In this document: one piece after another, positions 1 through 58,120 of the stretch
How positions within the stretch are numbered: the stretch's first letter is position 1
Layout of the letters: each line of letters starts with the position of its first letter
DNA from: Eledone cirrhosa
Taxonomy: Eukaryota
NCBI GenBank assembly: GCA_964016885.1
Contig: OZ024745.1
Location: forward strand, 44,826,001-44,890,000
Direction of reading: 5' to 3'
DNA length: 64,000 bases
Notes under the pieces: model-generated
Database searches by the model: none
The model's input: the letters and a program-made list of their open reading frames with translations, nothing else
What the model was told of the DNA's origin: nothing
Position numbers and translations under genes: made by a program

Positions 1-3000
1 CACATCTCTATCTGTTCCTTGGGTACCTTTAACACAGTCCACTTGGTTTCACATCTCTATCTGTTCTTTGGGTACCTTTAACACAGTCCACTTGGTTTCA
101 CATCTCTATCTGCTCCTTGGGTACCTTTAACACAGTCCACTTGGTCTCACATCTCTATCTACTCCTTGGGTACCTTTAACACAGTCCACTTGGTTACACA
201 TCTCTATCTGTTCCTTGGGTACCTTTAACACAGTCCACTTGGTTTCACATCTCTATCTGCTCCTTGGGTACCTTTAACACAGTCCACTTGGTTTCACATC
301 TCTATCTGCTCCTTGGGTACCTTTAACACAGTCCACTTGGTTTCACATCTCTATCTGTTCATTGGGTACCTTTAACACAGTCCACTTGGTCTCACATCTC
401 TATCTGCTCCTTGGGTACCTTTAACACAGTCCACTTGGTTTCACATCTCTATCTGTTCCTTGGGTACCTTTAACACAGTCCACTTGGTTTCACATCTCTA
501 TCTGCTCCTTGGGTCCCTTTAACACAGTCCACTTGGTTTCACATCTCTATCTGTTCCTTGGGTACCTTTAACACAGTCCACTTGGTTTCACATCTCTATC
601 TGCTCCTTGGGTACCTTTAACACAGTCCACTTGGTTTCACATCTCTATCTGTTCCTTGGGTACCTTTAACACAGACCACTTGGTTTCACATCTCTATCTG
701 TTCCTTGGGTACCTTTAACACAGTCCACTTGGTTTCACATCTCTATCTGCTCCTTGGGTACCTTTAACACAGTCCACTTGGTTTCACATCTCTATCTGCT
801 CCTTGGGTACCTTTAACACAGTCCACTTGGTTTCACATCTCTATCTGTTCCTTGGGTACCTTTAACACAGTCCACTTGGTTTCACATCTCTATCTGCTTC
901 TTGGGTACCTTTAACACAGTCCACTTGGTTTCACATCTCTATCTGCTCCTTGGGTACCTTTAACACAGTCCACTTGGTCTCACATCTCTATCTGCTCCTT
1001 GGGTACCTTTAACACAGTCCACTTGGTTTCACATCTCTATCTGCTCCTTGGGTACCTTTAACACAGTCCACTTGGTTTCACATCTCTATCTGCTCCTTGG
1101 GTACCTTTAACACAGTCCACTTGGTTTCACATCACTATCTGTTCCTTGGGTACCTTTAACACAGTCCACTTGGTTTCACATCTCTATCTGCTCCTTGGGT
1201 ACCTTTAACACAGTCCACTTGGTTTCACATCTCTATCTGCTCCTTGGGTAACTTTAACACAGTCCACTTGGTTTCACATCTCTATCTGCTCTTTGGGTAC
1301 CTTTAACACAGTCCACTTGGTTTCAGATCTCTATCTGCTCCTTGGGTACATTTAACACAGTCCACTTGGTTTCACATCTCTATCTGCTCCTTGGGTACCT
1401 TTAACACAGTCCACTTGGTTTCACATCTCTATCTGTTCCTTGGGTACCTTTAACAAAGTCCACTTGGTTTCACATCTCTATCTGTTCCTTGGGTACCTTT
1501 AACACAGTCCACTTGGTTTCACATCTCTATCTGCTCCTTGGGTACCTTTAACACAGTCCACTTGGTTTCACATCTCTATCTGCTCCTTGGGTACCTTTAA
1601 CACAGTCCACTTGGTTTCACATCTCTATCTGTTCCTTGGGTACCTTTAACACAGTCCACTTGGTTTCACATCTCTATCTGCTCCTTGGGTACCTTTAACA
1701 CAGTCCACTTGGTTTCACATCTCTATCTGTTCCTTGGGTACCTTTAACACAGTCCACTTGGTTTCACATCTCTATCTGCTCCTAGGGTACCTTTAACACA
1801 GTCCACTTGGTTTCACATCTCTATCTGCTCCTTGGGTACCTTTAACACAGTCCACTTGGTTTCACATCTCTATCTGCTCCTTGGGTACCTTTAACACAGT
1901 CCACTTGGTTTCACATCTCTATCTGCTCCTTGGGTACCTTTAACACAGTCCACTTGGTTTCACATCTCTATCTGTTCCTTGGGTACCTTTAACAAAGTCC
2001 ACTTGGTTTCACATCTCTATCTGTTCCTTGGGTACCTTTAACACAGTTCACTTGGTTTCACATCTCTATCTGTTCCTTGGGTTCCTTTAACACAGTCCAC
2101 TTGGTTTCACATCTCTATCTGCTCCTTGGGTACCTTTAACACAGTCCACTTGGTTTCACATCTCTATCCGCTCCTTGGGTACCTTTAACACAGTCCACTT
2201 GGTTTCACATCTCTATCTGCTCCTTGGGTACCTTTAACACAGTCCACTTGGTTTCACATCTCTATCTGCTCCTTGGGTACCTTTAACACAGTCCACTTGG
2301 TTTCACATCTCTATCTGCTCCTTGGGTACCTTTAACACAGTCCACTTGGTTTCACATCTCTATCTGCTCCTTGGGTACCTTTAACACAGTCCACTTGGTT
2401 TCACATCTCTATCTGTTCCTTGGGTACCTTTAACACAGTCCACTTGGTTTCACATCTCTATCTGCTTCTTGGGTACCTTTAACACAGTCCACTTGGTTTC
2501 ACATCTCTATCTGCTCCTTGGGTACCTTTAACACAGTCCACTTGGTCTCACATCTCTATCTGCTCCTTGGGTACCTTTAACACAGTCCACTTGGTTTCAC
2601 ATCTCTATCTGCTCCTTGGGTACCTTTAACACAGTCCACTTGGTTTCACATCTCTATCTGCTCCTTGGGTACCTTTAACACAGTCCACTTGGTTTCACAT
2701 CTCTATCTGTTCCTTGGGTACCTTTAACACAGTCCACTTGGTTTCACATCTCTATCTGCTCCTTGGGTACCTTTAACACAGTCCACTTGGTTTCACATCT
2801 CTATCTGCTCCTTGGGTAACTTTAACACAGTCCACTTGGTTTCACATCTCTATCTGCTCTTTGGGTACCTTTAACACAGTCCACTTGGTTTCAGATCTCT
2901 ATCTGCTCCTTGGGTACATTTAACACAGTCCACTTGGTTTCACATCTCTATCTGCTCCTTGGGTACCTTTAACACAGTCCACTTGGTTTCACATCTCTAT

Positions 3001-6000
3001 CTGTTCCTTGGGTACCTTTAACAAAGTCCACTTGGTTTCACATCTCTATCTGTTCCTTGGGTACCTTTAACACAGTCCACTTGGTTTCACATCTCTATCT
3101 GCTCCTTGGGTACCTTTAACACAGTCCACTTGGTTTCACATCTCTATCTGCTCCTTGGGTACCTTTAACACAGTCCACTTGGTTTCACATCTCTATCTGT
3201 TCCTTGGGTACCTTTAACACAGTCCACTTGGTTTCACATCTCTATCTGCTCCTTGGGTACCTTTAACACAGTCCACTTGGTTTCACATCTCTATCTGTTC
3301 CTTGGGTACCTTTAACACAGTCCACTTGGTTTCACATCTCTATCTGCTCCTAGGGTACCTTTAACACAGTCCACTTGGTTTCACATCTCTATCTGCTCCT
3401 TGGGTACCTTTAACACAGTCCACTTGGTTTCACATCTCTATCTGTTCCTTGGGTACCTTTAACACAGTCCACTTGGTCTCACATCTCTATCTGCTCCTTG
3501 GGTACCTTTAACACAGTCCACTTGGTTTCACATCTCTATCTGTTCCTTGGGTACCTTTAACACAGTCCACTTGGTTTCACATCTCTATCTGCTCCTTGGG
3601 TACCTTTAACACAGTCCACTTGGTTTCACATCTCTATCTGTTCCTTGGGTACCTTTAACACAGTCCACTTGGTTTCACATCTCTATCTGTTCCTTGGGTA
3701 CCTTTAACACAGTCCACTTGGTTTCACATCTCTATCTGCTCCTTGGGTACCTTTAACACAGTCCACTTGGTTTCACATCTCTATCTGTTCCTTGGGTACC
3801 TTTAACACAGTCCACTTGGTTTCACATCTCTATCTGCTCCTTGGGTACCTTTAACACAGTCCACTTGGTTTCACATCTCTATCTGTTCCTTGGGTACCTT
3901 TAACACAGTCCACTTGGTTTCACATCTCTATCTGTTCCTTGGGTACCTTTAACACAGTCCACTTGGTCTCACATCTCTATCTACTCCTTGGGTACCTTTA
4001 ACACAGTCCACTTGGTTTCACATCTCTATCTGTTCCTTGGGTACCTTTAACACAGTCCACTTGGTTTCACATCTCTATCTGCTCCTTGGGTACCTTTAAC
4101 ACAGTCCACTTGGTTTCACATCTCTATCTGTTCCTTGGGTACCTTTAACACAGTCCACTTGGTTTCACATCTCTATCTGTTCCTTGGGTACCTTTAACAC
4201 AGTCCACTTGGTCTCACATCTCTATCTACTCCTTGGGTACCTTTAACACAGTCCACTTGGTTTCACATCTCTATCTGTTCCTTGGGTACCTTTAACACAG
4301 TCCACTTGGTTTCACATCTCTATCTGCTCCTTGGGTACCTTTAACACAGTCCACTTGGTTTCACATCTCTATCTGCTCCTTGGGTACCTTTAACACAGTC
4401 CACTTGGTTTCACATCTCTATCTGTTCCTTGGGTACCTTTAACACAGTCCACTTGGTCTCACATCTCTATCTGCTCCTTGGGTACCTTTAACACAGTCCA
4501 CTTGGTTTCACATCTCTATCTGTTCCTTGGGTACCTTTAACACAGTCCACTTGGTTTCACATCTCTATCTGCTCCTTGGGTACCTTTAACACAGTCCACT
4601 TGGTTTCACATCTCTATCTGTTCCTTGGGTACCTTTAACACAGTCCACTTGGTTTCACATCTCTATCTGCTCCTTGGGTACCTTTAACACAGTCCACTTG
4701 GTTTCACATCTCTATCTGTTCCTTGGGTACCTTTAACACAGTCCACTTGGTTTCACATCTCTATCTGCTCCTTGGGTACCTTTAACACAGACCACTTGGT
4801 TTCACATCTCTATCTGTTCCTTGGGTACCTTTAACACAGTCCACTTGGTTTCACATCTCTATCTGCTCCTTGGGTACCTTTAACACAGTCCACTTGGTTT
4901 CACATCTCTATCTGCTCCTTGGGTACCTTTAACACAGTCCACTTGGTTTCACATCTCTATCTGTTCCTTGGGTACCTTTAACACAGTCCACTTGGTTTCA
5001 CATCTCTATCTGCTTCTTGGGTACCTTTAACACAGTCCACTTGGTTTCACATCTCTATCTGCTCCTTGGATACCTTTAACACAGTCCACTTGGTCTCACA
5101 TCTCTATCTGCTCCTTGGGTACCTTTAACACAGTCCACTTGGTTTCACATCTCTATCTGCTCCTTGGGTACCTTTAACACAGTCCACTTGGTTTCACATC
5201 TCTATCTGCTCCTTGGGTACCTTTAACACAGTCCACTTGGTTTCACATCTCTATCTGTTCCTTGGGTACCTTTAACACAGTCCACTTGGTTTCACATCTC
5301 TATCTGCTCCTTGGGTACCTTTAACAAAGTCCACTTGGTTTCACATCTCTATCTGTTCCTTGGGTACCTTTAACACAGTCCACTTGGTTTCACATCTCTA
5401 TCTGCTCCTTGGGTACCTTTTAGACAGTCCACTTGGTTTCACATCTCTATCTGCTCCTTGGGTACCTTTAACACAGTCCACTTGGTTTCACATCTCTATC
5501 TGTTCCTTGGGTACCTTTAACACAGTCCACTTGGTTTCACATCTCTATCTGCTCCTTGGGTACCTTTAACACAGTCCACTTGGTTTCACATCTCTATCTG
5601 TTCCTTGGGTACCTTTAACACAGTCCACTTGGTTTCACATCTCTATCTGCTCCTTGGGTACCTTTAACACAGTCCACTTGGTTTCACATCTCTATCTGCT
5701 CCTTGGGTACCTTTAACACAGTCCACTTGGTTTCACATCTCTATCTGCTCCTTGGGTACCTTTAACACAGTCCACTTGGTTTCACATCTCTATCTGCTCC
5801 TTGGGTACCTTTAACACAGTCCACTTGGTTTCACATCTCTATCTGCTCCTTGGGTACCTTTAACACAGTCCACTTGGTTTCACATCTCTATCTGCTCCTT
5901 GGGTACCTTTAACACAGTCCACTTGGTTTCACATCTCTATCTGTTCCTTGGGTACCTTTAACAAAGTCCACTTGGTTTCACATCTCTATCTGTTCCTTGG

Positions 6001-6442
6001 GTACCTTTAACACAGTCCACTTGGTTTCACATCTCTATCTGTTCCTTGGGTTCCTTTAACACAGTCCACTTGGTTTCACATCTCTATCTGCTCTTTGGGT
6101 ACCTTTAACACAGTCCACTTGGTTTCACATCTCTATCCGCTCCTTGGGTACCTTTAACACAGTCCACTTGGTTTCACATCTCTATCTGCTCCTTGGGTAC
6201 CTTTAACACAGTCCACTTGGTTTCACATCTCTATCTGTTCCTTGGGTACCTTTAACACAGTCCACTTGGTTTCACATCTCTATCTGCTCCTTGGGTACCT
6301 TTAACACAGTCCACTTGGTCTCACATCTCTATCTGCTCCTTGGGTACCTTTAACACAGTCCACTTGGTTTCACATCTCTATCTGTTCCTTGGGTACCTTT
6401 AACACAGTCCACTTGGTCTCACATCTCTATCTGCTCCTTGGC
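1..6442. repeat. 49-bp tandem satellite, ~131 copies, runs off the left edge
   Basis: Unit CACATCTCTATCTG(T/C)TCCTTGGGTACCTTTAACACAGTCCACTTGGTTT recurs every 49 nt (positions 1, 50, ...) with few point variants; it has a KpnI site in almost every unit. Confidence 0.98.
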
Positions 6443-7448
6443 TACTTTTAATTGAATCCATTCAATTGCAATCATTCAGATCATGTTTCTGATTAGAGGT
6501 TAACTTCTTCCCATACCTTATTCTTCTAGTCTTGGAGGTCCTGGAAGAAGGTTATGACCATAGTTCTGTTCCTTTCTAAGTTCCACAAAAAATAAAATAA
6601 AATAAAATAAAAATAACACTTAGAGCATGAACTAATGTGGCATCTTTCACACAGGTGAAACAAATTTCAAAATCCCAATATATACCCTAGCCTGTAATAC
6701 TAAAAAATAAACAAACAAAACAAACACATTAATGACATTCGAGCTATTGATAATCTTATAAAATCCTTTAGAAACAAAGTGTACATCATCCATTATTCAA
6801 TCATGGGATCTTGAAATATTTAAAGTGGATTTAAAGATTCTGATTAAAAAATACAAGAATCACAGAAAAATACAGCAGAAATTATTTAAATCAAATACAA
6901 CTGCTACTCTCTTTTTTTTCTCTCTCTATCTATCTCTGTTCCTACCCCTCTCTCTCTGACACACAAACATGCTTAGATTTAAAATCATAATACTACTATG
7001 TTCACTATTAACATGAAGACAGTAGAGTTATATTTGATGGAGATGTAGCTACTATTTTAAGCAGGCTACTTCATTGGCAATACTGGTGGTCTCTTATAGT
7101 GATGAAAGAAATAGTTCATAAAGATTGAAAAGCAGGGGGATATGGGGCAGGGGGTAATTGTTGTTCTGGGCTTGGGAATAGAGCACACAAAGAGAAAAAT
7201 AAAGAAGTTTTGCGCATTAAATTATTTTGAACAGTGAATTGAAATAGATCTGCCAACCTCTAAAAACCCAAACGGGGAGTACCATGAAAGAAGTGGCCCA
7301 AAACGGGGAGAATTGAGGCAAAATGGGGAGATTTTACATAATGAAAGCTATCCCCATTTTCACAAGAGAAAACATCTCTCACCCACCCCAAAGTGGATGG
7401 GAGATCTCCCCGTCCATTGAGGAGAGTTGACAGGTCTGAGAAATGTCT

Positions 7449-24632: not shown

Positions 24633-31010
<6,378 letters not shown>

Positions 31011-41449: not shown

Positions 41450-44400
41450 CACTACATTCCATACAATATTTCAATACACTACAACCCACACGATACTTCA
41501 CTATATGACAGTGTAGTACTGTACACTACAACCCACACAATACTTCATTATATGACAGTGTAGTACTGTACACTACATCCCATACAATACTTCACTATAT
41601 GACAGTGTAGTACTGTACACTACATCCCATACAATACATCACTATATGACAGTGTAGTACTGTACACTACATCCCATACAATACATCACTATACGACATT
41701 GTGGTACTGTACACTACAACCCACACGATACATCACTATATGACAGTGTAGTACTGTACACTACATCCCATACAATACTTCACTATATGACAGTGTAGTA
41801 CTGTACACTACATCCCATATAATACATCACTATATGACAGTGTGGTACTGTACACTACATCCTATACAATACTTCACTATATGACAGTGTAGTACTGTAC
41901 ACTATATCCCATACAATACATCACTATATGACAGTGTAGTACTGTACACTACATCCCATACAATACATCACTATATGACAGTGTAGTACTGTACACTACA
42001 TCCCATACAATACATCACTATATGACAGTGTAGTACTGTACACTACATCCCATACAATACATCACTATACGACATTGTGGTACTGTACACTACAACCCAC
42101 ACGATACATCACTATATGACAGTGTAGTACTGTACACTACATCCCATACAATACTTCACTATATGACAGTGTAGTACTGTACACTAAATCCCATACAATA
42201 CATCACTATACGACATTGTGGTACTGTACACTACAACCCACACGATACATCACTATATGACAGTGTAGTACTGTACACTACATCCCATACAATACATCAC
42301 TATATGACAGTGTGGTACTGTACACTACATCCTATACAATACTTCACTATATGACAGTGTACTACTGTACACTATATCCCATACAATACATCACTATATG
42401 ACAGTGTAGTACTGTACACTACATCCCATACAATACATCACTATATGACAGTGTAGTACTGTACACTACATCCCATACAATACATCACTATATGACAGTG
42501 TAGTACTGTACACTACATCCCATACAATACATCACTATATGACAGTGTAGTACTGTACACTACATCCCATACAATACTTCACTATATGACAGTGTAGTAC
42601 TGTACACTACATCCCATACAATACATCACTATATGACAGTGTAGTACTGTACACTACATCCTATACAATACTTCACTATATGACAGTGTAGTACTGTACA
42701 CTACAACCCACACAATACTTCACTATATGACAGTGTAGTACTGTACACTACATCCTATACAATACATCACTATATGACAGTGTAGTACTGTACACTACAA
42801 CCCACACGATACTTCACTATATGACAGTGTAGTACTGTACACTACAACCCACACAATACTTCACTATATGGCAGTGTGGTACTGTACACTACATCCCATA
42901 TAATACATCACTATATGACAGTGTGGTACTGTACACTACATCCTATACAATACTTCACTATATGACAGTGTAGTACTGTACACTACATCCCATACAATAC
43001 ATCACTATATGACAGTGTAGTACTGTACACTACATCCCATACAATACATCACTATATGACAGTGTAGTACTGTACACTACATCCCATACAATACTTCACT
43101 ATATGACAGTGTGGTACTGTACACTACATCCCATACAATACATCACTATATGACAGTGTAGTACTGTACACTACATCCCATACAATACATCACTATATGA
43201 CAGTGTAGTACTGTACACTACATCCTATACAATACATCACTATATGACAGTGTAGTACTGTACACTACAACCCACACAATACTTCACTATATGACAGTGC
43301 AGTACTGTACACTACAACCCACACGATACTTCACTATATGACAGTGTAGTACTGTACACTACAACCCACACAATACTTCACTATATGACAGTGTAGTACT
43401 GTACACTACATCCCATACAATACATCACTATATGACAGTGTAGTACTGTACACTACATCCCATACAATACATCACTATATGACATTGTGGTACTGTACAC
43501 TACAACCCACACGATACATCACTATATGACAGTGTAGTACTGTACACTACATCCCATACAATACTTCACTATATGACAGTGTAGTACTGTACACTACATC
43601 CCATATAATACATCACTATATGACAGTGTGGTACTGTACACTACATCCTATACAATACTTCACTATATGACAGTGTAGTACTGTACACTACATCCCATAC
43701 AATACATCACTATATGACAGTGTAGTACTTTACACTACATCCCATACAATACATCACTATATGACAGTGTAGTACTGTACACTACATCCCATACAATACA
43801 TCACTATATGACAGTGTAGTACTGTACACTACATCCCATACAATACATCACTATATGACAGTGTAGTACTGTACACTACATCCCATACAATACTTCACTA
43901 TATGACAGTGTAGTACTGTACACTACATCCCATACAATACATCACTATATGACAGTGTAGTACTGTACGCTACATCCTATACAATACTTCACTATATGAC
44001 AGTGTAGTACTGTACACTACAACCCACACAATACTTCACTATATGACAGTGTAGTACTGTACACTACATCCCATACAATACATCACTATATGACAGTGTA
44101 GTACTGTACACTACATCCCATACAATACATCACTATATGACAGTGTAGTACTGTACACTACATCCCATACAATACTTCACTATATGACAGTGTGGTACTG
44201 TACACTACATCCCATACAATACATCACTATATGACAGTGTAGTACTGTACACTACATCCCATACAATACTTCACTATATGACAGTGTAGTACTGTACACT
44301 ACATCCCATACAATACTTCACTATATGACAGTGTGGTACTGTACACTACATCCCATACAATACTTCACTATATGACAGTGTGGTACTGTACACTACATCC

Positions 44401-45116
44401 CATACAATACTTCACTATATGACAGTGTAGTACTGTACACTACATCCTATACAATACATCACTATATGACAGTGTAGTACTGTACACTACAACCCACACG
44501 ATACTTCACTATATGACAGTGTAGTACTGTACACTACAACCCACACAATACTTCACTATATGGCAGTGTGGTACTGTACACTACATCCCATACAATACAT
44601 CACTATATGACAGTGTAGTACTGTACACTACATCCCATACAATACATCACTATATGACAGTGTAGTACTGTACACTACATCCCATACAATACATCACTAT
44701 ATGACAGTGTAGTACTGTACACTACATCCTATACAATACATCACTATATGACAGTGTAGTACTGTGCACTACAACCCACACGATACTTCACTATATGACA
44801 GTGTAGTACTGTACACTACATCCCATACAATACTTCACTATATGACAGTGTAGTACTGTACACTACATCCCATATAATACATCACTATATGACAGTGTGG
44901 TACTGTACACTACATCCTATACAATACTTCACTATATGACAGTGTAGTACTGTACACTACATCCCATACAATACATCACTATATGACAGTGTAGTACTGT
45001 ACACTACATCCCATACAATACATCACTATATGACAGTGTAGTACTGTACACTACATCCCATACAATACATCACTATATGACAGTGTAGTACTGTACACTA
45101 CATCCCATACAATACA
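41450..45116. repeat. 47-bp tandem satellite, ~77 copies
   Basis: Unit CACTACATCCCATACAATAC(A/T)TCACTATATGACAGTGTAGTACTGTA, period 47 (41581 to 41628). Confidence 0.97.
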
Positions 45117-45299: not shown

Positions 45300-46701
45300 A
45301 TCATCATCATCATACGTCCGCTCTTCCCTGCTTGCAAGGGTGGGAGAGGTCTTGTTCAGCACAGCATCTCTCCACTCGTCACGGTCCTTCGTCATCTCCG
45401 CCGTGAGCTTGAACAATCTGAGGTCTGTTCTCACCACCTCCACCCATGTTTTTCGTGGTCTACCTCTACCACGTCTTCCTTCAACTGGCATTTCCTGGCA
45501 CTTCTTCACCCATCGGTCATCCTCCATGCGCATCACATGTACATACCACCTCAGTCTACTCTCCCGTGCACTACATTCTATCCCTCTCGGACACAGTTTC
45601 TCTCTCAACACATTCATGCTGGGTCCTTCACGCACATTTACACTGCACATCCAACGGAGCATGCTTGCCTCATTTCTCTCCACCCGTCGCATATCCTCTG
45701 CAGTTGCTGCCCATGTCTCACTACCATGCAGCATCGTGCTCCTCACACAGGCATCATACAACCGGCCTTTCGTACGCAGGGAGAAACCCTTCTTTGTCAG
45801 CAGAGGAAGCAGCTCCCTAAACTTCTTCCAACCCATCCTTATTCTAGATACTATGGTCTCGGAACATCCCCTCCCATGCTAATCTGATCTCCTAGGTACC
45901 GGAAGCTATCCACCAATTCTATAGCACCCTCCTGCATTTGAAAAATGTGTCTATCAATGCGACTTCTACTGTCTAATTTCCCTGTACATCTACTACATAC
46001 ATATTTCTCCCTACCTGTTAGTTTGCCTGCTATCCTGCTACATCTCTTGTGTACCCAGGATCTGCATTGTGTGCATTTTATAGAATTTATGCCAGTTCCT
46101 TTTCTGCATATCGAACATGGCCATTTCCCTGACGGAATCAGAGTTTTGTCCTCTTTTCTACTCATCAACACTCTTGTCTTAGCTAGGTTCACTCTCAGTC
46201 CTCTTGCTTCCAACTGCTGTTTCCATAGCCAGAATTTATTCTCTAACTCCTCTACTGATTCTGCTATAAGAACCAGATCGTCAGCATAGAGAAGTTCCCA
46301 TGGACAGCCAGTCTTAAACTCCTCTGTTATGGCTTGGAGGACTATAATGAACAAGAGCGGGCTGAAGACCGAACCATGATGTACTCCTACTTGTATCTGG
46401 AATTCCTCACTAAACTCCATTCCTACCCTGACTTTACTGACAGTATCTCTGTACAAAGTTTGCCCTGTCTTCACAAGCCATTCCTCAACACCTAGCTTCC
46501 TTAGGGACCACCAGATGACAGATCGGGGTAGCCTATCAAAGGCCTTCTCTAGGTCAACAAAGGCTAAGTATAGTGGCTTATTTTTCTCTAAGAACCTCTC
46601 TTGCAATTGTCTCACCAAGAAGAAGGCATCTGCATCTCATCTAGTTTGACCCTTTCTCTAATTAGTTGTGCTAATATTCTTTCTGCCACTTTCATAACCT
46701 C
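45300..46701 (-). mobile_element. RTE-clade LINE (RTE2), 5'-truncated, frameshifted, inserted in (TA)n
   Basis: ORFs 45851-46618 (FVDLEKAFD, LLYADD, FRYLG) and 45243-45836 (GSETWA, GRPRKTW) with a frameshift near 45870; (GAT)n tail at 45300-45313. Confidence 0.95.
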
Positions 46702-46715
46702 ATATATATATATAT

Positions 46716-46813
46716 ATAATAAAGAGTTGGGACTCGATGGCTGAGCTCTTGCCGTTTCAACAGCTGGTGCCAGCTGTTGAAACAGCAAGAGTTGGGTCCC
46801 GACTCTTTATTAT
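46716..46813. repeat. Fold-back palindrome P1 carrying the 3' half of an HHR (family Y)
   Basis: ATAATAAAGAGTTGGGAC...TTTCAACAGCTGG tg CCAGCTGTTGAAA...GTCCCGACTCTTTATTAT; the right arm has a short deletion. Confidence 0.85.
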
Positions 46814-47239
46814 TATATATAGCCATACTCTACTACCCCAAGTATTGAGTACTCTGTTGAGTAAAGGTGTAACTAGTTTTAAACTGGTTCTATCCTGATT
46901 TAAACAAACAAACAAACATACATATACGGTGGGTTGTGTATACAATGTAATTGCATGTAGTGTCTGGTTGTGTTATGTAAGTGTGGGGTGAGCTAGATGT
47001 GAGCTATAGAGAGCTGGAGGGAGGAGGAAGAGATCGTATTTGGAACAAAAGTTTGTGATAAAGCTTGTTAAAACAGTAAGCATTTTGTGTTTTTATGTTT
47101 TATTGTTTGTTAGGATAAAATAAAATGAAAAGGAGTGAAAAAGAATTATATATATATAAATATATATTAGAATTGGTGCTCTGAAATAGCGATATATATA
47201 TGAATGTATATATAGTGTATTTTGTAATACACTGTAAGC

Positions 47240-47395
47240 TTAATTAAAACCATTTCGAAGACCTTACGCTATTGTTTTAGAGTAGTGACTGTCTCACTTA
47301 CTTTAAATTTTCAGCAATTGCTGAAAATTTAAAGTAAGTGAGACTGTCACTACTCTAAAACAATAGCGTAAGGTCTTCGAAATGGTTTTAATTAA
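47240..47395. repeat. Palindrome P2, 78-bp arms with no spacer (family Z)
   Basis: Centre CAGCAA|TTGCTG at 47317/47318; one internal mismatch. Confidence 0.95.
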
Positions 47396-47674
47396 TCTTA
47401 TAGTATAAATATATATATATATATATATATGTGTAATGTTGACGGATGCGAGAATGAGTATTCAATACCGAAGTAGAGTTTAAATATTGGCTACACAGGT
47501 GAAACTCCAGAGTAACAAGGCTTATCACTTAGCCATAATAAAGAATATATATTTGGACGTGTGTCTACATGTGAGAACACGTATCAAGAACGAACGCTAT
47601 TCGATCATTCCTCAAGCTGATTAGCAATGAAACATGTAATATGTAATTAAATATGTATATGATTCTTTGTTCTC

Positions 47675-47730
<56 letters not shown>

Positions 47731-47734
<4 letters not shown>

Positions 47735-47867
47735 AACAAGTAAGACCCCGACGGCTGAGCTCAAGCCGTTTCGACGGCTAATTCTGTACTGAATGAAAAT
47801 TTCATTCAGTACAGAATTAGTCGTCGAAACGGCTTGAGCTCAGCCATCGGGGTCTTACTTGTTCCTA
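47731..47867. repeat. Palindrome P3, 68-bp arms with a 1-nt spacer, carrying the 3' half of an HHR (family Y)
   Basis: Centre GAATGAAA a TTTCATTC at 47799; the left arm on the minus strand reads GAAA-cggct-tgagctc-agccg-TC. Confidence 0.95.
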
Positions 47868-48117
47868 TTACCCACTCTACTACCCTAAGTATTGAGTACT
47901 TTGGTGCGTTATGGTCCACCTGGTTCCTTACCACATTTCCTTCGTTATATATATATATATAAATTAGAATTGGTGCTCTGAAATAGCTATATATATATGA
48001 ATGTATATATAGTGTATTTTGCAATACACTATATATTGCATTTCGAAGACCTTATGCTATTGTTTTAGAGTAGTGACAGACTGACTTACTTTAATTTTCA
48101 GCAAACAGGGGAGATAA

Positions 48118-48162
48118 AGCTGACAAGGCCTTGTTTCGCATTTATTGATGCTTATCAAAGCC
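48118..48162 (-). ncRNA. Type I hammerhead ribozyme, U3-A8 variant
   Basis: Minus strand GGCU-UUGAUAA-GCAU(caauaa)AUGC-GAAA-CAAGGCCUUG-UC-AGCU: palindromic stem III, GUC triplet. Confidence 0.75.
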
Positions 48163-48439
48163 AACTACTCTCCTGTTTGCTGAAAATTAAAGTAAGTGAG
48201 TCTGTCACTACTCTAAAAGAATAGCATAAGGTCTTTGAAATGCTTTTAATTAAGCATAAAGTGTATTGCAAAATACACTATATATACATTCATATATATA
48301 TATAGCTATTTCAGAGCACCAATTCTAATTTTCAATTTCTGCTTGACTGGCAACCGCTCTGTATAATCAGTTCCTGATTATTTACTAGAATTCTATAAGA
48401 ACCAAACATCCATGATTTCAGCAAACAGGAGGAGTAGTT

Positions 48440-48484
48440 GGCTTTGATAAGCATCAATAAATGCGAAACAAGACCTTGTCAGCT
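48440..48484 (+). ncRNA. Type I hammerhead ribozyme, U3-A8 variant
   Basis: GGCU-UUGAUAA-GCAU(caauaa)AUGC-GAAA-CAAGACCUUG-UC-AGCU; stem I is extended by UUUCAGCAAACAGG / CCUGUUUGCUGAAA. Confidence 0.72.
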
Positions 48485-48620
48485 TTATCTCCCCTGTTTG
48501 CTGAAAATTAAAGTAAGTGAGTCTGTCACTACTCTAAAACAATAGCATAAGGTCTTCGAAATGCTTTTAATTAAGCATACAGTGTATTGCAAAATACACT
48601 ATATATACATTTATATATAT

Positions 48621-48961
48621 GGAGGCACATGGCTTAGTGGTTAGAGCATTGGCCTTGCAATCGAAAGGTTGTTAGTTCAATTCTAAGACCGGGTGATGTG
48701 TTGTTTCCTTGAGCAAGACACTTTATTTCACATTGCTCCAGTTTACTCAGCTGTAGAAATGAGATGATAGGGACTGAGGTCCCTATCATTCCACTGCAAA
48801 GTGGTTGTGGAGGTGCCACGGCAAAAAAGCACCCAGCACTCACTGTAAATGAGGTTGGTGTTAGGAAGGGCATCCGGCTGTAGAAATCAAGCCAGAATCA
48901 GTTCCCGTCCCACCCTTGCAAGCAGGGAAAAAGTGGACGTAAAATGAAATGATGATGATGA

Positions 48962-48965
<4 letters not shown>
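48621..48965 (+). mobile_element. Full-length tRNA-derived CORE-like SINE family B with RTE-derived 3' tail
   Basis: A box TGGCTTAGTGG, B-box-like AGTTCAATTC and CORE-like TTCCTTGAGCAAGACACTT. The tail CCCACCCTTGCAAGCAGGGAA..GGACGTA..(GAT)n is shared with RTE2. Confidence 0.9.
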
Positions 48966-48997
<32 letters not shown>

Positions 48998-49080
48998 GGA
49001 ATAGATAGTACTGCTCAGCCGTTAATTTTCATAAGGAAAGTATATACTTTCGGACGTTCAACCATCTGGCAGAAAGGTAT

Positions 49081-49123
49081 ACGGTGCTGACGATAGCTAA
49101 TAAGCTTGAAACTAGTACATCGT
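49081..49123 (+). ncRNA. Minimal type I hammerhead ribozyme
   Basis: ACGGUG-CUGACGA-u AGCU aaua AGCU u-GAAA-CUAG-UA-CAUCGU: 6-bp stem I, canonical core, palindromic stem III, GUA triplet. Confidence 0.8.
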
Positions 49124-49351
49124 TCCTGTGTCAGTGTTGAACAAAAAGGTGACGTGGTTGCCTAAACACTGTACGGCGTAATTCAGGCTGTTTGTTTGTT
49201 TACAAACGAACAAACCGAGCATTATAATAAATGTTCGGTAAACTGATACGTGCATATATATATGTGTGCCTGTATGTATATATACATGCTACTGTACGTC
49301 TGTATACATACATACTTACATTTATATATATATATATATATGTATTAAGCG

Positions 49352-49730: not shown

Positions 49731-50899
49731 TTAATCATCATCATCATACTGTATGTAAATGTATACACTTTTTCATGTGTAACATTCTAATTGAATATTA
49801 GTATCTGTTGTGTACTGTTTTATTTTTTTAATATATAATCTGATTACTTGCATAGATCACACTCCTCATTGTCTTCATCATTTTTATATTTAACTTTCTA
49901 TGTTGGTTGTGTTGTCAGGATCTGAGTCGGTTCTTATTCTACATTATTGCCCCACTAGATAGGTCAGAGAACCTGTTTTGATTATATATTCCATTTTAGC
50001 ATGGTTTTAATGACTAGATGCCCTCTATCACCAACCATTTTTCAGAGTGTACTGGGTGCATTTTATCATAACACCAGTACCAGAAAGGTTGTCTTGACTA
50101 ACAAGTCCTCTCTACCCTATATTGTCTCCAGTTAGTCATTTACCAATATCAGAGAGGTGTTCTTGTTTCCAACAAGACTAGAGAGAGTCCCCTCTTCCCT
50201 GTATTATCTCTGCTTGTTCATTCCTTTCCTACACATTGTTTACTAGAAATTGATGTTATACATTGAACATGTTATGAAATATATTTATGTATGCCAGTGC
50301 ACATTCCAATGTACACTCAGGCATACATATAATCAACTGGACCTGTGTCAGCAATAATGATGGCAGAAGCATTGAACCTTCTTAATTTTCGGAGTCCACA
50401 ATTGGTATGCCATCATCATCATCATCATCATCATTTTACGTCCGCTTTTCCCTGCTTGCAAGGGTGGGACGGGTCTTATTATGCCATAGATACCATAATT
50501 GCCATTATACAAACAATCATACATCATCATCACTGTTTAGCGTCCATTTTTCCATGATTGCATGGGTTAGATTGGTCCACGTTGGGAGACAAGTCTGGCC
50601 AGAATTGGCCACGCCGTACTTTGCTCAGACGAGGACTGTAAATTTGGCCAGGGATGTTACAGCTTTGAAATTTGTGTTTTGATAAATTAATGGTTTGCAT
50701 AAGAGAAATCCTCTAGTTTTTGTTGATTACTGACATGTGGAAGGGATTAAAGATATGAATAATATTCTAATAGTTTATTTCTAGGATATAATTACATAAA
50801 TATTCAGCATATATATACAAATGAAATTCATGATTCTTTTTTCTTGTCCTGTCCACAAGGGTATCAGTTACAAAGCTTGGCTAGATGTGGTTCTGCCAC

Positions 50900-51193: not shown

Positions 51194-51533
51194 CATTTCA
51201 TCATCATTTCATCTTACGTCCGCTTTTCCCTGCTTGCAAGGGTGGGACGGGAACTGATTCTGGCTTGATTTCTACAGCTGGATGCCCTTCCTAACACCAA
51301 CCTCATTTACAGTGAGTGCTGGGTGCTTTTTTGCCGTGGCGCCTACATGTCCACTTTACAGTGGAATGATAGGGACCTCAGTCCTATCATCTCATTTCTA
51401 CAGCTGAGTAAACTGGAGCAATGTGAAATAAAGCGTCTTGCTCAAGGAAACAACACATCACCCGGTTTGAGAATTGAACTCACAACATTTCGATTGCAAG
51501 CCCAATGCTCTAACCACTAAGCCATGTGCCTCC
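51194..51533 (-). mobile_element. SINE family B, full length
   Basis: Reverse complement of 48621-48965; candidate TSD TGTRTGTGTTTATT on both sides. Confidence 0.9.
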
Positions 51534-51843
51534 ATTTGTGTGTGTTTATTTTAAAATGGTACAGACGGAGGCATATATAAATATACAAACACACGTGACA
51601 TATTATGGTTGATACTGTTTCTTACTAAAACTTTCCATTTTGCTGTTAACTACTTAGTCTATTTTGCCCACTCCTGCTTTAATGTAGTTAGTACTTTAAT
51701 AATAATTATAGTGATAGTATTTATAGTGGCAATGTTGATGCTGGTAGCATTCATAATGGTTGTGCTTGAGATTCTGATCTTTCAAAATATCAATTTAGAA
51801 GTGTCTGATAGCAATAATTTGATTACACATATGCGTGTATGTG

Positions 51844-56510: not shown

Positions 56511-58120
56511 TGTTCTAAATATACCATGTCCTCTACCTAGTAGAGGGATGTGATGTGTACTATACCATGTGGTAGTTTATTGTTCTAAATATACCATGTC
56601 CTCTACCTAGTAGAGGGATGTGATATGTACTATACCATGTGGTAGTTTATTGTTCTAAATATACCATGTCCTCTACCTAGTAGCGGGATGTGATATGTAC
56701 AATACCATGTGGTAGTTTATTGTTCTAAATATACCATGTCCTCTACCTAGTAGAGGGATGTGATATGTACTATACCATGTGGTAGTTTATTGTTCTAAAT
56801 ATACCATGTCCTCTACCTAGTAGAGGGATGTGATATGTACTATACCATGTGGTAGTTTATTGTTCTAAATATACCATGTCCTCTACCTAGTAGGGGATGT
56901 GATGTGTACTATACCATGTGGTAGTTTATTGTTCTAAATATACCATGTCCTCTACCTAGTAGAGGGATGTGATATGTACTATACCATGTGGTAGTTTATT
57001 GTTCTAAATATACCATGTCCTCTACCTAGTAGAGGGATGTGATATGTACTATACCATGTGGTAGTTTATTGTTCTAAATATACCATGTCCTCTACCTAGT
57101 AGGGGATGTGATGTGTACTATACCATGTGGTAGTTTATTGTTCTAAATATACCATGTCCTCTACCTAGTAGAGAGATGTGATATGTACTATACCATGTGG
57201 TAGTTTATTGTTCTAAATATACCATGTCCTCTACCTAGTAGAGGGATGTGATATGTACTATACCATGTGGTAGTTTATTGTTCTAAATATACCATGTCCT
57301 CTACTTAGTAGGGGATGTGATGTGTACTATACCATGTGGTAGTTTATTGTTCGAAATATACCATGTCCTCTACCTAGTAGAGGGATGTGATATGTACTAT
57401 ACCATGTGGTAGTTTATTGTTCTAAATATACCATGTCCTCTACCTAGTAGGGGATGTGATGTGTACTATACCATGTGGTAGTTTATTGTTCTAAATATAC
57501 CATGTCCTCTACCTAGTAGAGGGATGTGATATGTACTATACCATGTGGTAGTTTATTGTTCTAAATATACCATGTCCTCTACCTAGTAGAGGGATGTGAT
57601 GTGTACTATACCATGTGGTAGTTTATTGTTCTAAATATACCATGTCCTCTACCTAGTAGAGGGATGTGATGTGTACTATACCATGTGGTAGTTTATTGTT
57701 CTAAATATACCATGTCCTCTACCTAGTAGAGGGATGTGATATGTACTATACCATGTGGTAGTTTATTGTTCTAAATATACCATGTCCTCTACCCAGTAGA
57801 GGGATGTGATATGTACTATAACATGTGGTAGTTTATTGTTATAAATACGCCATGTTTTCTCTTTTAAAGAGAGCCTTGTAGTGTACTCTGACATGTGGTA
57901 GTTTAGTATTAGAAGAATACCATAGCCTCAACCTAGTTGAGGACCATGTGGTGTACTTTATATAACATGTGGTAGTTTAGTGTTAGAAATACACCATCAC
58001 TTCTACCGAGTTAAGGATCATGCAGTGTACTATAACATGTGGTAATTTACAATGTTATAAGTATACCATGGCCTTAACTTAGTTGAGGACTATATGATGC
58101 ACTTTGGCATGTGGTAGTTT
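56511..58120. repeat. 70-bp tandem satellite: ~19 homogeneous copies to ~57850, then diverged copies
   Basis: Unit TGTTCTAAATATACCATGTCCTCTACCTAGTAGAGGGATGTGATRTGTACTATACCATGTGGTAGTTTAT, period 70 (69 in a deletion variant). Confidence 0.96.

Follow-up and report, generated by a model that had tools for sequence, protein, structure and literature searches.

Inverted Penelope-like insertions in Eledone cirrhosa may consist of paired cDNAs that end inside a hammerhead ribozyme

Introduction

The insertion unit of EN+ Penelope-like elements (PLEs), as described in the available parts of PMC8557442 and PMC3846280, consists of a pLTR, an adjacent inverted and 5'-truncated copy, and a tail at one end. 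The available text of PMC3846280 also notes Inr-like motifs in pLTRs and explains the palindromes by self-priming on an antisense template; that of PMC2377424 sees 'no obvious mechanism' for the formation of the inverted repeats, and PMC8557442, in its available sections, likewise states the question to be open, together with pseudo-LTR regeneration. Members of the Hydra clade carry DKT, RWK, CxCX5C, CxxC and CxH motifs, an RT followed by a C-terminal GIY-YIG, and an HHR, and are linked to (TA)n (PMC8557442, section 11, in part). The protein of the Anolis PLE Poseidon cleaves both strands and extends them, initiating at two internal positions on either side of the tail, and a dimer is predicted (PMC11167929, available part). 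In L1 twin priming, two cDNAs are made from both target ends and end-joined with microhomology or inserts (PMC11702581, available part).

Here we analyse four palindromes in a 64,000-nt window of the Eledone cirrhosa genome (contig OZ024745.1, positions 44,826,001 to 44,890,000) together with their relatives genome-wide. The insertions resemble those of EN+ PLEs in their head-to-head arms, palindromic or microhomology joints, one-sided tail, HHR in the pLTR and (TA)n targets. They differ in that most insertions of the family that we call Y are stubs of 60 + 145 nt whose inner ends lie at one edge, and in a tail of ~80 nt in Y against the 30-40 nt given in the available published text. The inverted copy, the palindromic joints and the one-sided tail are already published (PMC8557442, PMC3846280 and PMC2377424, available parts), and the palindromes themselves are ordinary PLE products; the new part is a mechanistic signature. 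Among the mostly open-access main texts searched, no paper was found that ties PLE joints to twin priming and an RNA start in the HHR, or that places inversion junctions at a start site there.

Results

A first-pass annotation of the window had described the four palindromes as mirrored about hammerhead stems. Inverted repeats were indeed found at P1 (46716-46813), P2 (47240-47395), P3 (47731-47867) and P4 (47961-48331), all within (TA)n. Ungapped self-complementarity was 98.7% for P2 and 96.4% for P3; P1 and P4 are gapped inverted repeats at 77% and 84% (BLAST). The picture of symmetric units did not hold for P1, P3 and P4, where the right arm extends past the start of the left arm, to ~46898, 47947 and 48620, respectively. 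P3 belongs to family Y, P1 not to Y but to its older relative Y2, and P2 and P4 to family Z.

In P1, the left arm (46716..46770, -) is the Y2 pLTR end in antisense. It begins at outer site 1, next to (TA)n, and enters HHR loop II, where it breaks off ~5 nt 3' of the homologous AGTC. Its right arm (46769..46898, +) reads in sense from the stem II 3' arm and GAAA through the tail to outer site 2, with part of stem III deleted. The left arm of P3 (47730..47802, -; refY 2436 to 2364) is antisense Y and passes from outer site 1 through the 3' strands of stems I, III and II into loop II, and the right arm (47800..47947, +) reads in sense from refY 2368 to outer site 2, including a tail of ~80 nt (47868-47947) that the left arm lacks. 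P3 turns not in stem II, as first annotated, but in the AT-rich loop II, with a 3-nt overlap, TTT, at 47800-47802. The 3' half of a Y hammerhead follows at 47826..47853 (+), with GAAA at 47826-47829, stem III, predicted cleavage after C47848 and the stem I 3' strand.

P2 and P4 border (TA)n at one and the same element position (47166 and 47963), as had been noted. The left arm of P2 (47166..47317, -) is antisense Z, 96% identical to subfamily z2, from monomer position 319 to 169, where it ends in the stem I 3' arm; the right arm (47318..47430, +) reads in sense from 169 and decays toward ~292 and (TA)n. The joint between them is blunt and palindromic, with zero overlap. In P4, the left arm (47961..48185, -; z1 antisense) runs from outer site 2 through the entire HHR into the stem I 5' arm, and the right arm (48172..48620, +; 98% to z1) holds ~1.4 Z monomers in sense and ends near outer site 1. 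They share 14 nt (48172..48185) that fit the stem I 5' arm in antisense and equally the stem I 3' arm in sense, which bears out the annotated strand switch within stem I. The P4 right arm also includes a complete type I hammerhead (48416..48506, +), with stem I arms at 48416-48429 and 48493-48506, core UUGAUAA at 48444-48450, GAAA at 48465-48468 and predicted cleavage after C48480. P2 had been taken for the P4 junction with the ribozyme collapsed out. Its identity is higher to z2 (96.1%) than to z1 (94.7%), and that of P4 is higher to z1 (98.0%) than to z2 (93.0%); P2 and P4 are therefore likely to be separate insertions, and P2 need not be a collapsed P4.

Around these insertions, the window holds further repeats. 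At 49011-49270 (+), a fourth repeat family in (TA)n carries a minimal hammerhead-like motif (CUGACGA at 49087, a short stem II, GAAA and a self-complementary loop III); similar sequence occurs in 32 of the fetched loci at 75-95% identity. Four different hammerhead-bearing families thus lie within 2.6 kb of (TA)n-linked insertions (46716-49270), and the site-2 ends of P3 and P4 on one TA run suggest repeated targeting. A decayed LINE RT fragment with a YADD motif, which we take to be RTE-like, occupies 45300-46700 (-) and ends at the (TA)n of P1; its end repeat is shared with 50424-50480. Adjoining the end of P4 is a SINE-like repeat (48619-48700) whose second copy (51454-51535, 94%) overlaps a weak Rfam tRNA match at 51467-51524. 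Minisatellites lie at 1-6451 (49 bp), 41475-45116 (47 bp, with a palindrome in the unit) and 56511-58105 (70 bp), and there is a 200-N gap at 28572-28771.

Judged by its motifs, family Y is a Penelope-like element with Hydra-clade features. Its unit of ~3.6 kb continues into an ORF with RWR, DKT (HSDKTG, in place of DKG), YRDD, CNCPDRSSC (CxCX5C), a GIY-YIG-like stretch, CNLC (CxxC) and CKH (CxH). A Pfam scan of the ORF copy that we read, which has a frameshift and a stop, gave 0 families, with YRDD and then VIY..AYIG present in order; among the Atlas matches at 0.95-0.98 are clusters in which 40-49% of members carry RVT_1 and 21-47% carry GIY-YIG. Y shares with the Hydra clade (PMC8557442, available part) DKT, CxCX5C, CxxC, CxH, an HHR in the pLTR and insertion into (TA)n, and probably also the order of RT and GIY-YIG-like region. 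It differs in having RWR at the RWK position, a U3/A8 hammerhead core and a unit longer than the <3 kb that is general in that clade.

The Y hammerhead consists, in order, of ACCCC-UUGAUAA, a long-looped stem II, GAAA, stem III, UC and GGGGU. The first-pass annotation had expected GACCCC-CUGANGA in intact Y copies; a CUGAUGA core is found instead in Y2, whose HHR is homologous to that of Y and to which P1 has its best matches (80-96% identical; 2,271 first-look Y2 candidates). A strict CUGANGA scan missed both Y and Z because of their U3/A8 core. Rfam showed no hammerhead among the 150 of 209 matches listed, and these variants were found by motif.

Family Z is a 319-bp AT-rich, non-coding, retrozyme-like monomer that forms tandems of 2-3 or more units (1,901 candidates), with a type I HHR in a low-GC tandem repeat within the 150-450 bp retrozyme range. 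Among 123 segments, stem II covaries (GCAT/ATGC 45, GTAC/GTAC 40, ATAC/GTAT 9, GCAC/GTGC 6) and stem III is a perfect palindrome in 65. The core is U3/A8 in 110 and C3/G8 in 9, and the HHR co-varies across three subfamilies. By motif and covariation, then, the annotated hammerheads are real. Z resembles the metazoan non-LTR retrozymes in the available text of PMC7229834 and bioRxiv 10.64898/2026.07.22.740005 as a tandem, AT-rich monomer of ~320 bp with one type I HHR. It differs from them in having arms inverted in the PLE manner, a pair of fixed outer sites and insertion into (TA)n, which suggests a mechanistic link to PLE proteins; the word 'inverted' is absent from the available text of PMC7229834. 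Y itself forms a tandem array of ~274 bp (refY 2355-2629) at G000:C3:214146636-214147756. The array contains the putative RNA start site discussed below, half an HHR, both RT start sites and the first codons, and may be a nascent retrozyme-like derivative of Y.

Arm ends were counted in loci retrieved with exact patterns at the outer ends, which in the whole 3.0-Gb genome matched 2,612 times for Y site 1, 20,512 times for Y site 2 and 896 times for Z site 2. From lists ordered by position, we fetched 68 of 100 listed places for Y site 1, 30 of 100 for Y site 2 and 90 of 100 for Z. Removal of 2 unparsed loci and 3 duplicates left 157 Y arms, and of one false partner, 66 Y inversions. For Z, one mis-fetched locus and 7 more (a duplicate, a diverged subfamily, one shorter than 30 nt and four internal rearrangements) were taken out, and two ends were corrected manually; the final Z sample comprised 82 loci with 63 inversions and 145 arms. 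Z ends were mapped with three references and gapped extension, since subfamily divergence otherwise produced false ends at 156 and 166. The samples are mostly the first matches on contig C1 and needed an exact pattern, so that young subfamilies are favoured; score-ranked loci are biased, and were used for references and left out of the breakpoint counts.

Both families have two fixed outer sites. In 64 of the 66 Y inversions the partner arm terminates at the opposite outer site, in keeping with the annotated PLE-type inverted insertion, and reads confirm (TA)n behind both sites. Of the 63 Z inversions with one arm anchored at 319, 50 have the partner arm ending at monomer position 280-294 and 1 has it ending at 319. 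At the inner joints we found overlaps of 0-6 nt or inserts, the latter in 21/66 Y and 26/63 Z junctions. Joints of this kind are expected if two cDNAs are end-joined, as in L1 twin priming (PMC11702581, available part). Microhomology of at least 2 nt exceeded chance, occurring in 28 of 44 insert-free Y junctions (null ~10-15%).

The inner ends of Y arms are concentrated in loop II. Of 113 arms reaching refY 2385, 97 end within the 14-nt window 2372-2385, where end density per 100 nt is 9.06; the three bins with stems on its 3' side have 0.46-1.03 (0.38-1.03 over the stem-bearing bins as a whole) and the bins on its 5' side 0.12-0.57; the window is 11.7-fold denser in ends than the stem-holding stretch 2386-2420. 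The annotation had anticipated breakpoints enriched in stem II or stem I. Y breakpoints are far from uniform, but they pile up in loop II and not in the stems. The edge is not one base, with peaks at 2377 (21 ends) and 2382 (16), and a small self-complementary ATTC..GAAT there may sharpen it. By hand tally, arms stop no more than 10 nt 5' of the homologous A in 59 of the first 100 of 15,640 Y matches and in 74 of the first 100 of 358 Y2 matches; P3 itself overshoots the edge by 4-8 nt in both arms. Read depth across the Y edge rises ~60-fold (contig, run X1, possibly the source sample), with loose ends before both A residues. A separate pile-up of read ends at position 2398 of one Y locus (L091), in RAD runs, was set aside as a likely AATT restriction site.

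Z has no such edge. Its arms wrap round the monomer, up to ~1,040 nt, and the HHR holds 48 of 145 ends (RR 1.30, p = 0.14 against the rest). The expected enrichment thus failed for the Z ribozyme as a whole and was seen in the stem I 3' arm alone, with 24 of 145 ends (RR 1.85, p = 0.003 before correction for 7 bins); P2 turns in this bin. Ends exactly at the predicted cleavage site are few (Y L089, L392 and a neighbour in L067; Z L114).

The Y edge coincides with TCAGT or TTAGT, a pyrimidine-A motif with a TCATT lying 4 nt before it, whose Inr-like YAGT we liken to an initiator (Inr). In P3 this is the tandem TCATTCAGT of loop II (47802..47810, +), in which A47804 and A47808 correspond to refY 2372 and 2376, the genome-wide edge. 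An extra untemplated G is expected opposite an mRNA cap. In stopped arms, the base before the A was G or A in the ratio 16:4 in Y and 20:4 in Y2 by raw hand tally, and 9:2 and 10:2 once cases explained by the partner arm or flank were removed (pooled 19:4, p = 6e-6, binomial on genome composition). A scripted count gave G12:A2 in 49 stopped arms, so the extra G is a minority feature of the stops (12/49). One base downstream, the G excess is absent (~5 unexplained G to 22 T, hand tally). Partner arms reaching A2376 had a C added 9 times and a T 0 times (hand tally; 2 of the 9 also fall in the first-100 Y listing). A C excess directly before arms that start at G2377 is unexplained; a read-through variant with C at 2376, seen in 3 of 100 Y rows, may account for part of it. 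The cleanest single case of the mechanism proposed below is L289/L290 (G000:C1:4944670-4944724), in which both arms end at A2376, each with the cap-expected extra base, 3 nt apart.

Whether an arm stops at the edge is a property of its template: in 41 of 42 insertions the two arms behave alike, both stopping or both passing (p = 3.5e-4). Among loci that hold a pLTR-ORF junction, 30 of 64 were taken and 26 were independent, 21 with a long ORF extension and 5 with a short one. Two of the 21 long copies do not reach the edge; of the 19 that do, 17 continue beyond it, against 16 of 113 short arms (p = 1.4e-10). The five with short extensions stop at the edge (3), at the predicted cleavage site (1) or, in one array, at 2355. 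Y has a TATA-like TATTTAAA at -29 that is missing from Y2, and the two families also differ in their downstream promoter motifs; neither feature is used as evidence here. We rejected a splice acceptor at TTCAG, as the stopped arms run into the partner arm or flank and share no upstream exon. That long copies arise mainly by a strong-stop jump fits poorly with how differently they and the short arms behave at the edge.

Discussion

We consider it probable, at roughly 0.65, that the palindromes arise by twin priming on one RNA and that the Y and Y2 arms run off a capped 5' end inside loop II. On this reading, each palindrome is a single PLE insertion at a cut (TA)n target. Both ends of the cut target likely prime cDNA on the same RNA, one from each fixed internal start site, and the two cDNA ends would then be joined head to head, probably by end-joining with 0-4 nt of microhomology or short templated inserts. 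In Y and Y2, both cDNAs would run off the capped 5' end of an RNA whose transcription likely starts at A2372/A2376, inside the HHR loop II; the template of Z, and of those Y copies that go beyond the edge, is likely circular or multimeric. What the sequences show directly are the two fixed outer sites, the arm geometry, the 14-nt edge, the untemplated G, the agreement of the two arms and the absence of an edge in Z. Several observations weigh against this reading: the breadth of the edge, its overshoot by P3, the small share of stops with an extra G, the C excess before G2377, the TATA-like box that Y2 lacks, the above-chance microhomology, the self-complementary ATTC..GAAT and the Y junctions whose geometry would permit fold-back.

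The role that the first-pass annotation had given to the ribozyme hairpins was self-priming or template switching, a second function of the HHR fold at the DNA level. In self-priming, the growing cDNA would fold onto a hammerhead stem and serve as its own template, an account near that of PMC3846280 (available part). A folded-back cDNA copies only what it holds, so a second arm with sequence absent from the first excludes it; since the Y site-1 arm lacks the tail, the site-2 arm is the sole possible template, and it would have to extend further 5' than its partner. Among the 64 Y junctions assessed (the 66 less two loci), geometry permits fold-back from the site-2 arm in 28. It is impossible in the other 36, in 5 of which the arms have no overlap at all, and in P1, P3 and P4; the arm geometry here thus contradicts the published model. 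Switches in Z stem I like that of P4 do exceed chance, with 9 true cases among 12 pattern matches against 0.17 expected (~50-fold), yet beside 1,130 intact 5' arms they amount to ~1% of Z copies, and in the unbiased Z sample they make up 2 of 63 junctions (L129, L210). Six of 66 Y junctions, read by eye, sit on a 6-nt complementarity of stems II and III, but few ends lie in the Y stems, the Z hammerhead is not enriched overall, and a non-ribozyme palindrome outside the HHR, TTAATTAA (L208), is used in the same way. HHR stems therefore provide only occasional ready-made microhomology at joints, and the long stem I of Z is perhaps a mild RT pause. Self-priming is refuted as a general route, which leaves it a minor one; as the explanation of these palindromes we hold it to be very unlikely, even with 20 point differences shared by both arms. 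A further 50 differences in 2,452 sites are private to one arm, which makes it extremely improbable that the palindromes are read or assembly chimeras. Against chimeras there are also the 52 of 67 Y site-1 loci that are inverted, with many different junctions, and equivalent strand-change joints at other loci in raw Illumina reads (three runs, another study; L091 2391, 2395, 2397 and 2401, equal to refY 2376-2386).

Two other readings explain the Y edge by something other than run-off at a capped RNA start. Twin priming could be right and RT be stopped by an RNA fold or bound protein in loop II. The mild excess of Z ends on entering the long stem I and the 14-nt width of the Y edge would suit such a stop; yet loop II alone folds at just -0.9 kcal/mol and arms pass stronger stems, and the untemplated G is seen only at the +1 base. 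Neither the passage of long ORF copies through the same sequence nor the agreement of the two arms is what a local stall would produce, and we think this reading unlikely. Alternatively, the GIY-YIG endonuclease or another nuclease might cut the cDNA or RNA at the ATT-containing loop II motif: another PLE cleaves 5'-ATT-3' (PMC11167929, available part), an ATT lies at refY 2372-2374, and the tail has been ascribed to endonuclease resolution (PMC8557442, available part). A processed end predicts neither the extra G nor the escape of long copies, however, and many other ATT motifs in the arms are not ends; we regard it as quite unlikely.

Twin priming with run-off at an RNA end has partial counterparts in described systems. 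With Anolis Poseidon it has in common two internal RT start sites round the tail, extension of both strands and an AT-rich target; in the available part of PMC11167929, inverted junctions are neither explained nor mapped to a transcript start. In L1, the second cDNA starts beside the end of the first and the arms barely overlap (PMC11702581, available part), whereas here each arm has a fixed start site, the two lying 25-80 nt apart, and the same stretch is copied into both.

The genome counts contradict the published self-priming account of PLE palindromes, and twin priming with an RNA end yields base-level predictions: a start site for each arm, the beginning of the RNA, and the template class for long copies. 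A wider reading, which we offer tentatively, is that in these PLEs transcription starts inside the element's own HHR. The capped RNA would then have only one half of the ribozyme at the 5' end and a complete copy at the 3' end. From start sites 60 and 145 nt away from the cap, a dimeric RT would produce two 'strong-stop' cDNAs, joined into tens of thousands of palindromic stubs, and the long copies that keep the upstream promoter region would come from a second RNA class without that end, either read-through or hammerhead-made circles, as in Z. If true, a transcription start inside the HHR would account at once for the inverted arm, the tail on one side and the regeneration of pseudo-LTRs.
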